Source: Escherichia phage mEp554. Taken from it: 53,846 nt of DNA. Below are positions 1 to 53,846 of the stretch, piece after piece. How positions within the stretch are numbered: position 1 is the stretch's first letter; every line of letters begins with the position of its first letter. The notes under the pieces were generated by a model that was not told where the DNA came from, searched no databases, and worked only from the letters and a program-made list of their open reading frames with translations. The DNA lies in the sequence record PP180005; one strand, 5' to 3'. The translations under genes and the position numbers were made by a program.

Positions 1-17
1 AGACAGTAACGATTAGT

Positions 18-142
18 GGTGTTCAATCCCGTTCAGACTCGTTCACGGCTGATAAAAAATATCATTTAAATTCACTAGGTTACATCTAAATCATCCTGTA
101 GTGTGTTTAAATCCGTTCAATGGTGTTAATATCCGTTCAGAT
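18..142 (+). repeat. Direct repeats GGTGTT(C)AAT(A)TCCGTTCAGA (18-38, 122-142) plus a third ATCCGTTCA copy (110-118); candidate integrase arm-type sites
   Basis: Three same-orientation copies of ATCC(C)GTTCA within 125 bp immediately upstream of int. Confidence 0.3.
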
Positions 143-147
143 AAAAC

Positions 148-169
148 TGTGTACCAAATCGTGACCAAA
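148..169. repeat. Candidate att core, left copy (TGTGTACCAAATCGTGACCAAA)
   Basis: 21/22 identical to 53753-53774; lies 16 nt upstream of the int start codon. Confidence 0.4.
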
Positions 170-185
170 AAAAAGAGGTATCAGA

Positions 186-1400
186 ATGCTGACGGATACG
201 AAATTACGCGCAATAGCAAACAAGCCATATGACGGCCCGAACGAGATAGCAGATCGCGACGGCTTATCTGCCAGGGTAAGCCCGAAAGGAAAAATAACTT
301 TCCAGTTCCGGTACAGGTTCAACGGTAAGCCAGTGAGGATGAAGATCGGCGATTACGGCAGTATGACATTGAAAGATGCACGCTACGCAGTGGCAGAATA
401 CAAAGAGCTATTAGCGAAGGGGAAGAACCCAACTGTTTCAGTAAAACAAGCGCTAAATATTGAGCGTGGCAAATTAACAATAAGCGCCATTGTGAATGAC
501 TATTTATCCCTGCCGAACGTTATTAAGCTGGTTGCATATAATGACGTCAGGAGCGCGCTTAAGCGCCATGTTGTCGATAAATTCGGTAATTATATTGCCG
601 ATGATGTCAGCACGAAGCAATGGATGGACATATTCGGCGAGATCACTGCGGCGGGACACGCTGTTACGGCTGGCCTGATACTTAAGCGAATGAAGATTGT
701 TGTGAACAGCGCTATCCGGCGCGGGCTAATGACCAGTACAGCGATAAACAATATCAGGGTTATTGATGTAGGCGAAAATTATGCGGTTGGCGAGCGTTAT
801 TTATCATGCGATGAAATAGGTCATTTCTGGCGAACGGTGGATGATTCACAGATCTACCGTCAGAACAAGATAGCATTAAAGCTATTATTGCTCACCGGGT
901 GCAGGGTGGGAGAATTGCAGAAAATGCGGAGGGAACACCTCGACCTGGATAACGGTGTGTGGACCGTTCCGGCAGCGGTGGCAAAAACAAGGAGCGAAAT
1001 CAGGCGGGGATTGTCTGATCTGTCAATAGAAATGCTCAGGGAGGTATTAACCTCCCATGAGTATGATTATGTGTTCCCGCCAGTGATTAACGGCGGCAAC
1101 AGGCCAGTAAACGCATCAGTGATAAAAGTGGCTGCAATCTTCGTGCGTAAAAGGATGGGAGGTAAATCATGGTCCTGTCACGACCTCCGAAGGACGTGCC
1201 GGACGCACCTTTCTGCTATAGGTGTTCCGGTACATATCGCGGAAAAGGTATTAGGCCATTCACTCAGGGGAATACTGGCAGTGTATGACAAATATGATTA
1301 TATTGATGAACAAAAGGAGGCGTTAAATAAATTTGCTGATTACGTCTTATCCCTGGCTGGCGTTAATCCGATCTTATCAAAGAACCGCATCACATCTTGA
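186..1400 (+). CDS. int: Tyrosine site-specific integrase (P4-like family)
   Basis: 404 aa; N-terminal MLTDTKLRA...GKPVRMKIGDYG arm-binding-like domain; C-terminal HDLRRT...HSLRGILAVYDKYDY with R..H..R..Y catalytic pattern. Confidence 0.9.
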   Translation: MLTDTKLRAIANKPYDGPNEIADRDGLSARVSPKGKITFQFRYRFNGKPVRMKIGDYGSMTLKDARYAVAEYKELLAKGKNPTVSVKQALNIERGKLTISAIVNDYLSLPNVIKLVAYNDVRSALKRHVVDKFGNYIADDVSTKQWMDIFGEITAAGHAVTAGLILKRMKIVVNSAIRRGLMTSTAINNIRVIDVGENYAVGERYLSCDEIGHFWRTVDDSQIYRQNKIALKLLLLTGCRVGELQKMRREHLDLDNGVWTVPAAVAKTRSEIRRGLSDLSIEMLREVLTSHEYDYVFPPVINGGNRPVNASVIKVAAIFVRKRMGGKSWSCHDLRRTCRTHLSAIGVPVHIAEKVLGHSLRGILAVYDKYDYIDEQKEALNKFADYVLSLAGVNPILSKNRITS

Positions 1401-1570
1401 TAGCGGTACATGACGCCCCTCCCGGTCCCCAACACATCAACCGGGTCCGGGAATGGAGTTCCGTTTTCCTCCCACTTTTTACGCCATGAATAGAACGTTC
1501 CCCTGCTAATCCCACCAAGCATACGGCAGATGGCAGGGCGACTAAGAAGAATTGTTGCCGTTTTATCCAT
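1340..1570 (-). CDS. AlpA-family excisionase / transcriptional regulator
   Basis: 76 aa; LSRPAICRMLGGISRGTFYSWRK HTH typical of AlpA/Xis; adjacent to int; 61-nt convergent overlap with int 3' end. Confidence 0.7.
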   Translation of the reverse strand: MDKTATILLSRPAICRMLGGISRGTFYSWRKKWEENGTPFPDPVDVLGTGRGVMYRYQDVMRFFDKIGLTPARDKT

Positions 1571-51169: not shown

Positions 51170-53695
51170 ATGATTTATACGACTGGAACAATTGCCATCA
51201 ACGGCAATACTGTTACAGGCACGGGAACAAACTTTTCCGCGCCGCTTTCTCTCATTCGTGTAGGTTGCACGCTCATTGCCATCGGCAACCAGGTGCAGAT
51301 CTTTACAGTTACAGAAATTAAAAACGGTACTGAACTGTCAGTAACGCCAGCGGCTAACCCTGCGATCCCTGCCGGAACAAAATTTAGTATTCTGCTATCT
51401 GACTCGATCTCAGTTGATGGGCTTGCTCAGGATGTAGCCGAAACTCTGCGTTACTACCAGGGCAAGGAAACAGAGATTGCAACAGCCGTTGAATGGTGGA
51501 ACGAGTTCGGCGGTGATGGTCAGATGGAACAACTTCTTGCCGACATTCGCGCAGAAACAGCGCAATCAACCGCCAATGCTCAAAAAACAGAATCAGACAA
51601 AAACGCGGCAGCAGCATCAAAAACGGCAGCAGCAAACTCAGCCACAGCAGCAAAAGCGTCACAGGATGCAGCAAAAGCCAGCGAAACGTCAGCAAGCAAC
51701 AGCAAAACGGCGGCGGCTACCAGCGAAACCAATGCGGCAAAATCAGCAGCCGATGCGCTTAACTATCGCAACCAGGCGCAGGGCATTGTGGGGACTGATA
51801 TAGGTTTGGGTGCAAATCGCCGCGACTGGCCTGACTGTAACGATCCGACAGGATATATAGGTTTTTGCCGTGCCGAAGCGTCAACAGCAAAAAACTTTCC
51901 GTCGATTGCATCAGGAGAGCTTTACCTTGTTGGTTGGTTGGCGCGCGGTGACGGTGCAACTATTAACGGCTGTTTCGTTGGTACTGTTACCCGTTCACTG
52001 TATACCTACAGCTATAACAACGCAGACAAATCAGTTGCGTGGACGCGTCACGCAAGAAAAGACGAAGTAGATCGCTTTTCTCAAATAGGTAGCGACCAGA
52101 CCCGTATTTACGCTGGCAACGGTAAAACATATTTAGAAATTGGCAACGATCGTGCATGGGGTGTTTATAATGGCGAGACTGGTCAATGGAAACCGTTAGA
52201 TCTTGCGCAAGGCGGTACATCTGGACGTAATTCAGGACAGGCGCGTACAAACCTTGAGGTTATGCACGAGAAAAAATCAGCTCTCAATTCCACTAATATT
52301 AATACGCTCACTGGTGAGTATTCTGGTTTTTATTACCAGGCATCAAATGTAGGCGCTACGGCAGAGTTAGGTTATCCAGTAGCAGGCGCGGGAGCATTAC
52401 TTGTTATAAAAAACGGCGCAAATAGTGCATCAGGATGTACGCAGCTCTATTTCCCTTACAATGCTGTAAATGGCGCATTTTATATGCGCCAATATATCCT
52501 TCAATCTTCCTCTGCTGGCTGGGAGTGGACTTCATGGAAAAAATTTCAGTCACTTGATTTTGCTGATAGCCCACAATTTGCCAATCTCAATCTTGTAATT
52601 TCTTCGGATAATGAAACCACTAACGGAGGTATACTGCAAAGCATACTCAACGGTACAACAGGAGCGCAAAGAGCCAGAACGCGCATTTACACCGAGTTTA
52701 GGGGTGATGGTAAGGCGTGGGCAACAACTCATCTACAGAGTGGCAGCAGTAATAAATATGCAGGATTGAGCGAAGACGGAGATTTTGCTTTAAGTACAGG
52801 TGATTTTGTCGCCAGAAGTGCACGATTATCATCAAACGTAAGCAATCCATTAACTTTGACGAGCGCACACCCAACAATTAAATTTGATGAGACTGACAGA
52901 CCTGAAGGGTCGCCGGACTACGCTTTTATCTGTGATGGTGGGAACTGGCGTATTGAAAGAGATCATTGGGATACATCAAAAGCCAAAGATTGCATCTCAT
53001 ATAGTTACAGCACACAAGAAATCAAAGTACCAAATCTGTCGACTCAAAATATTGCCATTCATGGAGGCAAAAGTTCCGGCGCTGGTACACTCCGGATTGA
53101 AAGTCAAAAAAGTTCAGACGAAGGGATGTATATTCGGGCATGGGGTAACGGTACGGATCGCTTGTCTGTTCTGGAGGTATCACTAGACTCAGGATTCCTA
53201 TTCTATGCCCAAAAAGTCGCTGACGGAAGCAAGGTACTAAGGGTTAACGGTTCAGTAACATGCACAACAGTTAACCAGACTTCAGATCGCGACCTAAAAG
53301 ACAACATTCAGGTTATAGGTGACGCTACTGAAGCAATCCGTAAAATGAACGGGTACACTTATACCCTTAAGGAAAACGGCCTGCCTTACGCTGGCGTTAT
53401 CGCTCAGGAGGTCATGGAGGCGCTGCCGGAAGCTGTTGGATCGTTCACCCATTACGGTGAAGAATTGCAGGGACCGACCGTTGACGGACGCGAGCTACGC
53501 GAAGAAACGCGTTATCTCAATGTTGACTACGCCGCAGTGACTGGTTTACTTGTCCAGGTGGCACGCGAAACAGATAACCGCGTAACCGAACTGGAAGAGG
53601 AAAACGCCATCCTACGCGCTAACATTGCTGAAATGGATGAGCGTATCGCAAAACTTGAAGCGCTTGTCAGTAAGTTGACAGAAGGCGAAAAATAA
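51170..53695 (+). CDS. Side tail fibre protein with C-terminal intramolecular chaperone (S74-type) domain
   Basis: Ala/Ser/Thr-rich lambda Stf-like N-terminal repeats; C-terminal SDRDLKDNI...NGYTYTLKENGLPYAGVIAQEV...coiled coil. Confidence 0.85.
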   Translation: MIYTTGTIAINGNTVTGTGTNFSAPLSLIRVGCTLIAIGNQVQIFTVTEIKNGTELSVTPAANPAIPAGTKFSILLSDSISVDGLAQDVAETLRYYQGKETEIATAVEWWNEFGGDGQMEQLLADIRAETAQSTANAQKTESDKNAAAASKTAAANSATAAKASQDAAKASETSASNSKTAAATSETNAAKSAADALNYRNQAQGIVGTDIGLGANRRDWPDCNDPTGYIGFCRAEASTAKNFPSIASGELYLVGWLARGDGATINGCFVGTVTRSLYTYSYNNADKSVAWTRHARKDEVDRFSQIGSDQTRIYAGNGKTYLEIGNDRAWGVYNGETGQWKPLDLAQGGTSGRNSGQARTNLEVMHEKKSALNSTNINTLTGEYSGFYYQASNVGATAELGYPVAGAGALLVIKNGANSASGCTQLYFPYNAVNGAFYMRQYILQSSSAGWEWTSWKKFQSLDFADSPQFANLNLVISSDNETTNGGILQSILNGTTGAQRARTRIYTEFRGDGKAWATTHLQSGSSNKYAGLSEDGDFALSTGDFVARSARLSSNVSNPLTLTSAHPTIKFDETDRPEGSPDYAFICDGGNWRIERDHWDTSKAKDCISYSYSTQEIKVPNLSTQNIAIHGGKSSGAGTLRIESQKSSDEGMYIRAWGNGTDRLSVLEVSLDSGFLFYAQKVADGSKVLRVNGSVTCTTVNQTSDRDLKDNIQVIGDATEAIRKMNGYTYTLKENGLPYAGVIAQEVMEALPEAVGSFTHYGEELQGPTVDGRELREETRYLNVDYAAVTGLLVQVARETDNRVTELEEENAILRANIAEMDERIAKLEALVSKLTEGEK

Positions 53696-53724
53696 GAGGT
53701 GATGTGCGAAGAACATCGCCGCGC

Positions 53725-53753
53725 GAAACGAGGCTAACGCCTCGTTTCTTTTT
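53725..53753 (+). terminator. Rho-independent terminator after tail fibre gene
   Basis: GAAACGAGGC-TAAC-GCCTCGTTTC hairpin plus TTTTT. Confidence 0.7.
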
Positions 53754-53774
53754 GTGTACCAAATAGTGACCAAA
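53753..53774. repeat. Candidate att core, right copy (TGTGTACCAAATAGTGACCAAA)
   Basis: 21/22 identical to 148-169. Confidence 0.4.
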
Positions 53775-53846
53775 TATCCAAAACCAAAAACAAAAGCGCT
53801 GTAACATACTGTTTTATAAATGATTACTAACAGCGCTAACCATTCC

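Follow-up and report, generated by a model that had tools for sequence, protein, structure and literature searches.

In the prophage KplE1, attL carries five sites for TorI (GTTCG, GTCCG, GATCG) arranged in two blocks (Panis et al. 2010, PMC2951348). The first block (I1 and I2) lies beside the core and the second (I3–I5, with a spacing of about 10 bp) abuts the −35 element of PintS, the arm-type sites of IntS overlap the −10 element just before the ATG, and intS is repressed by both IntS and TorI (PMC2951348). According to work cited in that article, the int gene of P4 is negatively regulated by Int and Vis (cited in PMC2951348). More generally, recombination directionality factors (RDFs) typically bind direct repeats placed one helical turn apart, in a head-to-tail manner (PMC7498355), and they bend DNA and often repress promoters (PMC7498355; PMC11963761). 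The arrays bound by Apl of phage 186 and by Cox of phage P2 consist of 5–7 direct repeats at 10–11 bp and serve both excision and promoter repression (PMC7498355). With regard to the mEpimmI group of coliphages, a 2025 paper distinguished integrase types Ia/Ib (ydaM), II (abgT), III (mppA) and IV, proved the integration of mEp021 in ydaM by PCR and described one immunity repressor common to all mEpimmI phages; arm sites and attP anatomy were not treated there (PMC11893012).

Here, we analyzed the whole 53,846-nucleotide sequence of Escherichia phage mEp554 (PP180005; hereafter, the window), in which direct repeats at positions 18–142, upstream of int, had originally been predicted to be arm-type sites of the integrase. 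By analogy with the TorI sites of KplE1 and in view of the general rule for excisionases, these repeats are more likely to be excisionase sites. Our preferred reading, in which we place somewhat better than even confidence, is that the GTTCA repeats are RDF sites which would be bound by a 76-aa protein encoded next to int and which overlie the probable int promoter, while a different element, a 22-bp tandem pair present on both arms, would provide the integrase arm-type sites.

The attP core lies across the ends of the window

The window represents the circular genome of a temperate, mEp021-like coliphage of the mEpimmI group, opened in the middle of the attP core. When its end (..CCATTCC) and its start (AGACAG..) were joined, they formed TCCAGACAG, which is the junction sequence found at dgcM (ydaM) in lysogens, and the window is therefore a circular genome cut within the core. 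The features that define this region are the following:

53725–53752, plus strand: intrinsic terminator 3′ of the tail-fibre gene (51170–53695), with a stem-loop and a T run read from the sequence
53844–53846, plus strand: first three bases (TCC) of the attP core TCCAGACAG, from lysogen junctions, K-12 attB and intact attP
1–6, plus strand: last six bases (AGACAG) of the attP core, from the same three sources

TCCAGACAG was found in both attL and attR of E. coli MIN12. The attL junction read ..cgaTCCAGACAGtaacg (L001; L002 was also compared), the attR junction ..ccatTCCAGACAGgactg (L004), and the empty site in K-12 (attB) ..cgaTCCAGACAGgactg within dgcM. Alignment of K-12 with the left and right junctions revealed that the host sequence stops at ..gaTCCAGACAG and restarts at TCCAGACAGgactgg.., at dgcM codons 15–18. 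An intact attP carrying the core was present in an IMG/VR contig (L006) and in other metagenomic phage contigs, and the first 1.5 kb of the window matched 19 E. coli chromosomes, with dgcM (ydaM) adjoining every time. A tRNA or tmRNA target was rejected: the window holds no such gene, and the site is within dgcM.

The original prediction had mentioned a candidate core at 148–169 and had found its position odd relative to the repeats. This doubt was justified, given that the true core spans the window ends; both the host–phage junctions in lysogens and the intact attP contigs reject 148–169 as the core. With the core so placed, positions 7–185 constitute the P′ arm, and the repeats at 18–142 are phage DNA lying in this arm, between the core and int. 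A host origin of the repeats, which would have refuted the original prediction, was also checked, and they are phage and not host sequence since the empty K-12 site does not contain them.

The terminator was annotated as such in mEp010 and was invariant across four integrase types; judging by its sequence, it shields the attachment region from late transcription. Between the P-arm 22-bp pair described below and the core (53775–53843), the P arm displayed phased ACCAAA/CAAAA tracts (..accaaatatccaaaaccaaaaacaaaag..) as well as an 8-bp perfect inverted repeat, AGCGCTGT..ACAGCGCT, with the two halves 26 bp apart, and either the tracts or the inverted repeat could, from their sequence, represent an intrinsic bend or a host-factor site. 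On the host side, integration cuts dgcM after approximately codon 17 and parts it from its own promoter, and RefSeq annotates the remnant in one case as a frameshifted pseudogene and in another as a shortened CDS with ATC as its first codon (L001 and L002 junctions). A lysogen would probably lack dgcM function, with possible effects on curli and on the formation of biofilms.

The integrase and a small convergent protein

Two genes that overlap at their 3′ ends follow the P′ arm:

186–1400, plus strand: int, tyrosine integrase of 404 aa (PF13356, E 2.5e-21; PF00589, E 5e-21)
1340–1570, minus strand: small winged-helix protein of 76 aa, candidate RDF of the Vis/AlpA type (predicted fold, alignment with Vis, weak profiles)

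The integrase (Int) combined an N-terminal Arm-DNA-bind_3 domain (PF13356, 76 bits with a cut-off of 27) with PF00589 (75.7 bits with a cut-off of 27.1), that is, the arm-binding N-domain and the tyrosine recombinase catalytic domain which mark the P4/KplE1 type. It was 97% identical to the integrases of mEp021 and mEp515, and 24% identical to both IntS of KplE1 (E 9e-22) and Int of P4 (E 7e-18). An integrase scan of genome contigs returned only one distant relative, with 31% identity.

The small gene is convergent with int and is the last of a leftward string of minus-strand genes; a counterpart was present in every relative compared. The homologue search yielded only 15 close relatives and hence a shallow alignment, with which structure prediction returned a winged helix for the 76-aa protein at a mean pLDDT of 82. 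In Foldseek, this model matched the GIsul2 excisionase best among PDB folds (8c3t; probability 0.95, E 0.14), and MerR-type winged helices, including BldC and RdfS, came next; a PDB sequence search with the protein gave spurious matches only. In addition, the protein aligned with P4 Vis (31% identity over 59 aa, pairwise E 0.001), carried the FPxP loop of the AlpA/Vis/Gifsy-1 Xis group and gave weak profile matches, both below cut-off, to the excisionase family phrog_66 (E 0.008) and to Xis_Gifsy_1 (E 0.0045). Taken together, the predicted fold and these sequence similarities make it plausible that the 76-aa protein is an RDF. The fold-match E value, the profile scores below cut-off and the result of a BLASTP comparison, in which TorI had no similarity to the 76-aa protein, weigh against this reading.

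The 3′ overlap between int and the small gene amounts to 61 nt (1340–1400) and was kept in mEp010, Pm34, Oslo and the IMG/VR relatives. Convergent transcription over this segment could add a layer of antisense control.

A phased GTTCA array in the P′ arm

Both 21-mers on which the original prediction was founded were recovered, GGTGTTCAATCCCGTTCAGAC at 18–38 and GGTGTTAATATCCGTTCAGAT at 122–142, on the same strand and with 16 of 21 positions identical, and the leader upstream of int (start at 186) was indeed AT-rich (60–75% A+T). The third copy, ATCCGTTCA, exists as well, but at 111–119, one base away from the 110–118 given for it. A repeat search brought these elements into a 17-nt family at 19–35, 103–119 and 123–139, with GTGTTNNNNNCCGTTCA (GTGTT-N5-CCGTTCA) present exactly at all three positions; no other match to GTGTT-N5-CCGTTCA was detected in the 53.8-kb window on either strand with one mismatch allowed (0.23 expected per window).

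The smaller unit shared by these repeats is GTTCA, which occurred five times in the 179-bp leader (positions 21, 31, 41, 115 and 135), always on the plus strand, and the only remaining GTTNA sequences there were GTTTA at 105 and GTTAA at 125. As the leader contains no GTTNA beyond these seven, all seven units are in phase within two blocks, with an exact spacing of 10 bp inside each (21/31/41 and 105/115/125/135). Each block thus reaches the number (at least three) and the spacing (close to one helical turn) of direct repeats that characterize an RDF array. The arm is organized as follows:

18–46, plus strand: core-proximal block with GTTCA at 21–25, 31–35 and 41–45, including the 21-mer at 18–38; proposed first RDF block
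47–102, no strand assigned: A+T-rich spacer (65–75% A+T) separating the two blocks
103–139, plus strand: int-proximal block with GTTTA at 105–109, GTTCA at 115–119, GTTAA at 125–129 and GTTCA at 135–139; proposed second RDF block

The int-proximal block includes the third copy (111–119) and the 21-mer at 122–142, and overlies the candidate int promoter described below. In the P arm (53696–53843), neither GTTCA nor TGAAC was found, and the array is confined to 19–139. Sites for the core-binding domain of the integrase in the arms were dropped as a candidate, the core region being without GTTCA-like sequence. A search of both arms for the IHF consensus WATCAANNNNTTR with at most one mismatch gave no match and no IHF site is therefore claimed; a host bending protein might act at the spacer (47–102).

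Short motifs in an A+T-rich leader could in principle have arisen by chance or slippage and be functionless. We consider this very improbable, since the seven units are exactly phased at 10 bp on one strand (Poisson P ~3e-6 per span), the pattern is unique in the window, where all other 179-bp spans contained at most two GTTCA each, and the same two-block phased layout, built from other sequences, recurred in relatives down to 40% integrase identity.

A candidate int promoter within the array

In lysogens the adjoining host gene, dgcM, is divergent, and in the phage a terminator precedes attP; for these reasons, the int promoter must fall within 7–185. The best candidate in this segment was the following:

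106–132, plus strand: candidate int promoter, with −35 TTTAAA at 106–111, a 15-nt spacer, TG at 124–125 and −10 TAATAT at 127–132

This site had the best sigma-70-like score in positions 1–200 by weight matrix, yet that score was only within the top ~10% of the 200-nt windows of the genome, and a consensus promoter scan upstream of int found no match. A −10-like hexamer (TAATAT, TACTAT or TTATAT) was located 15–17 nt before the 22-bp pair in types Ia, Ib, II and III. The candidate promoter lies wholly within the int-proximal repeat block, as would be expected of repeats that overlie a promoter of int, although the best promoter-like site there is a moderate consensus match only.

The coincidence of the int-proximal block with the candidate −35 and −10 elements, together with the A+T-rich character of the leader, might suggest that the repeats are promoter architecture or sites for the immunity repressor, a host factor or some further regulator, with no direct role in recombination. 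This appears improbable to us. The distal block is situated 60–90 bp upstream of the candidate promoter and directly beside the core, the repeats vary by integrase type within one host species while the mEpimmI repressor is shared, and the motif is absent from the immunity region and from the rest of the window. Operators of the immunity repressor in particular were rejected, given a single shared repressor, type-specific repeats and a motif found nowhere else in the genome.

Tandem 22-bp pairs as likely integrase arm-type sites

The sequence TGTGTACCAAATCGTGACCAAA at 148–169 recurred with one change at 53753–53774 and had no further copy in the window. Each 22-bp copy consists of two 11-bp units in tandem that end in ACCAAA:

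148–169, plus strand: P′-arm pair TGTGTACCAAA+TCGTGACCAAA, 141 bp from the core and 16 nt 5′ of the int ATG; proposed arm-type sites
53753–53774, plus strand: P-arm pair TGTGTACCAAA+TAGTGACCAAA, 69 bp from the core; proposed arm-type sites

The P-arm pair lies directly 3′ of the tail-fibre terminator and was also present in attR of E. coli MIN12. The 22-bp pair was kept in types Ia, Ib, II and III and in Oslo-like and Pm34-like phages. We regard the pairs at 148–169 and 53753–53774 as the likely integrase arm-type sites because they are present on both arms at a constant spacing, are conserved together with the arm-binding N-domain and follow the layout of the arm repeats in P4 and KplE1. The autoregulation of int by Int, which had been proposed for the repeats at 18–142, is probably right for this other repeat, at 148–169.

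The GTTCA repeats differ from these pairs in precisely the properties expected of arm-type sites, namely copies on both arms and conservation wherever the arm-binding domain is conserved. What stands from the original assignment is that they are same-orientation, phage-borne repeats of the protein-binding type, located in the arm of a P4-type integrase (PF13356 and PF00589); what is not supported is the arm-type role, as they occur in the P′ arm only and are replaced in relatives with a nearly unchanged arm-binding domain. Lambda-type arm sites can be tandem at 10–11 bp.

It could nevertheless be argued that the GTTCA repeats are arm-type sites of the Int N-domain, perhaps in addition to the 22-bp pairs, and that Int bound there autoregulates int. 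Besides their common orientation in the P′ arm of an integrase with an arm-binding domain and their overlap with the best promoter-like site, the repeats resemble P′1–P′3 of lambda, which are also in tandem at about one turn. Moreover, the repeat units differ slightly between types Ia and Ib, as does the N-domain (86% identity), and Int and the small protein are inherited together. Against this, the P arm has no copies, unrelated sequences take the place of the repeats in types II and III even though the N-domain β-sheet is nearly unchanged, KplE1 and P4 have their arm sites as tandem pairs, one adjoining the int ATG and one on the opposite arm, which corresponds to the 22-bp element here, and the first GTTCA block is only about 15 bp from the core, nearer than known arm sites. 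We therefore judge an arm-type role of the GTTCA repeats to be rather unlikely; should they have such a role after all, the arrays would form an additional class of integrase arm site that varies with type, an unusual situation.

Attachment regions of related phages

We compared attP and attL regions of types Ia and Ib, type II (mEp010, MagusPhagus and IMG/VR contigs), type III (E. coli MFDS1019527, L048), Salmonella phage Oslo and Proteus phage Pm34, together with IMG/VR relatives that reached down to ~40% integrase identity (the best 80 of 274 viral relatives). This comparison with related attachment regions, which the original prediction had named as a check, separated the two kinds of repeat: the 22-bp pairs were constant, whereas the repeats corresponding to 18–142 were swapped according to integrase type. 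In particular, a TGTGTACC-type pair was found directly 5′ of int in every relative compared, and a second one, in the same orientation, 231–241 bp further upstream wherever attP was intact. In the alignment of attP from four types, the only invariant parts were the terminator and the 11-bp arm units. Between the pairs, each type had its own direct repeat with a phase of about 10 bp, in two blocks at conserved positions. The phased units were:

type Ib: GTTCA
type Ia: CCGTACA / CCGTTCA
type II: ATCGTGTCA
type III: GCGTAAAC
Oslo-like and Pm34-like: TGTTTCA

The proteins showed a corresponding pattern. The N-terminal arm-binding domain was the most conserved part of Int (67% identity between types Ib and II, where the middle domain had 34% and the catalytic domain 55%), with a β-sheet about 80% identical in types II/III. 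For the small protein, the identity of types Ib and II was 44%, and most of the putative recognition helix differed from one type to another, with the variants SRGTFYSWRKKW, SKSAFFKLVKKW, SRTTFRVWKMKW and SRTTFYRKRKQW. In Pm34 and in the relative L101, the 22-bp unit was altered to TGTGTACA, and the Int N-domain was altered too (TP.G, GRPRRMT). Site sequence and recognition helix agreed broadly over at least six types, imperfectly so in the relative L092, which had CGTTCA-like units with a different recognition helix.

Type II phages (mEp044, mEp010 and mEp013) were 91–97% identical to the window only from ~1538 onwards and unrelated before, from which it follows that int is exchanged as part of a cassette, along with the core, the GTTCA-type repeats and the small protein's DNA-binding part. 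The mosaic breakpoint at ~1538 falls within the 5′ end of the excisionase-like gene (1340–1570, minus strand). Because the cassette is passed on as a unit that includes the core and the repeats as well as both proteins, co-variation does not allow a clean distinction between Int and the small protein as the partner of the repeats.

Several further observations were made in this series. In the type II relative L046 (IMGVR_UViG_3300045988_076816), the terminator was followed by a single 22-bp pair right before the int ATG, and about 230 bp with the core and the phased repeats were missing at a point ~40 nt 5′ of int (locus position 1501); the sequence suggests that the two direct repeats recombined and the DNA between them was deleted, which would have removed attP. 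Oslo (L022, 1280–1320), Pm34 (L023, 1305–1335) and the relatives L049, L050, L084, L092 and L101 had tgtatgtgatcttgcgtataag in common, with small variations. To judge from its sequence and its place between the arm pairs, tgtatgtgatcttgcgtataag probably serves these phages as a shared core, directed at a single host gene that is conserved among genera. The Pm34-like locus (L023, 1488–1503) also had an inverted arm unit, TGTGTACA, over the int ATG, at the same place where an inverted repeat is annotated in P4; an inverted arm-unit copy at the int start is absent from this window.

A model of the locus and its implications

The RDF reading of the GTTCA repeats is supported by the phasing of units on one strand, their restriction to one arm, their type-specific change, the presence of an excisionase-like small protein and the precedents in other phages. 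In this model, the small protein would bind the two phased blocks cooperatively, head-to-tail, after induction and would bend the P′ arm, so that Int at the arm pairs could bridge to the core for excision. The same protein on the repeats would occlude the probable int promoter (−35 at 106–111, −10 at 127–132) and thereby lower int transcription, and Int on 148–169, corresponding to approximately +9 to +30 of the candidate promoter, would provide int autoregulation.

A bolder proposal, to which we assign only a small chance of being correct, is that the mEpimmI module is a natural 'scaffold plus cassette' system. The scaffold would consist of the arm domain of Int and the TGTGTACC pairs, about 240 bp apart, kept across phages of E. 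coli, Salmonella and Proteus; the cassette would comprise the core-binding domain, the core, the excisionase recognition helix and the phased sites, exchanged together. If true, this would offer a ready-made series for the study of an excisionase–DNA recognition code and of integrase re-targeting.

Apart from this, the analysis corrects the attachment-site anatomy for a recently described, gut-prevalent group of coliphages, for which the published work gave core motifs only. It places the core and both arms and assigns likely positions to the integrase arm sites, to the excisionase and to the sites of the latter, in addition to a candidate promoter of int. These elements are direct targets for work on how the phages control their integration into, and excision from, the biofilm regulator gene dgcM, and the occurrence of four integrase types in one phage family, with relatives in Salmonella and Proteus, is convenient for studying the co-evolution of excisionase and integrase specificity.

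Comparison with known systems

Like the window, attP of lambda is served by a heterobivalent integrase with arm sites on both arms (P1, P2 and P′1–P′3) over ~240 bp, and its Xis binds phased direct repeats (X1-X1.5-X2) and bends DNA, as proposed for the small protein here. Lambda is unlike the window in that the Int N-domain belongs to a different Pfam family and the Xis sites occupy the P arm; the excisionase-type repeats of the window lie in the P′ arm, beside int. Transcription from PL covers both int and xis in lambda, whereas int of the window needs a promoter of its own. The Apl and Cox systems of 186 and P2 share the phased direct-repeat array with this locus but rely on another integrase type and protein family, and their arrays are found at the lysis–lysogeny switch as well; a second GTTCA-type array was not present elsewhere in the window.

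The integrase of P4 is of the same family as that of the window, and its Vis resembles the 76-aa protein. In the RefSeq record of P4, each arm has a tandem pair of annotated 12-bp 'attP arm sequence repeats'; the distances to the core are 53 and 112 bp, compared with 69 and 141 bp in the window, and the P′ pair lies 15 nt before the int ATG (16 nt here). P4 differs from the window in the sequence of the arm repeat (TTGGGGGCAT), in the position of vis, which is not adjacent to int, and in extra inverted arm copies at and inside the int start. P4 integrates in tRNA-Leu, and Vis has been reported to act on int partly through RNA. On the int strand of P4 (L105, 3966–4077), we observed two copies of TCCGAG-N3-GTCC-N6-ATCC, one by the core and one by the P′ arm pair; from this two-block placement, similar to that of the GTTCA arrays, they could be Vis sites.

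KplE1 (CPS-53) differs in its target, tRNA-argW as opposed to the protein-coding dgcM, in its arm site, GGGTAAAAT (found as a tandem pair in attR) as opposed to TGTGTACCAAA, and in having five RDF units, compared with seven putative ones in the window. Moreover, torI is located at the far end of the prophage, whereas the candidate RDF gene here is convergent with int. In its overall arrangement, however, KplE1 parallels the window throughout: an integrase with an arm-binding N-domain, int as the first gene after attL with its promoter in the arm, RDF-type direct repeats in two blocks, one by the core and one by the promoter, arm sites that directly precede the int ATG, the opposite arm bearing a tandem pair, and int and RDF genes that share no common promoter. 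Even the repeat unit is alike, GTTCA here and GTTCG among the TorI sites. The window thus represents an uncharacterized recombination module of the P4/KplE1 kind, and since the mechanism itself is the established P4/KplE1 paradigm, it would come as no surprise to a specialist.
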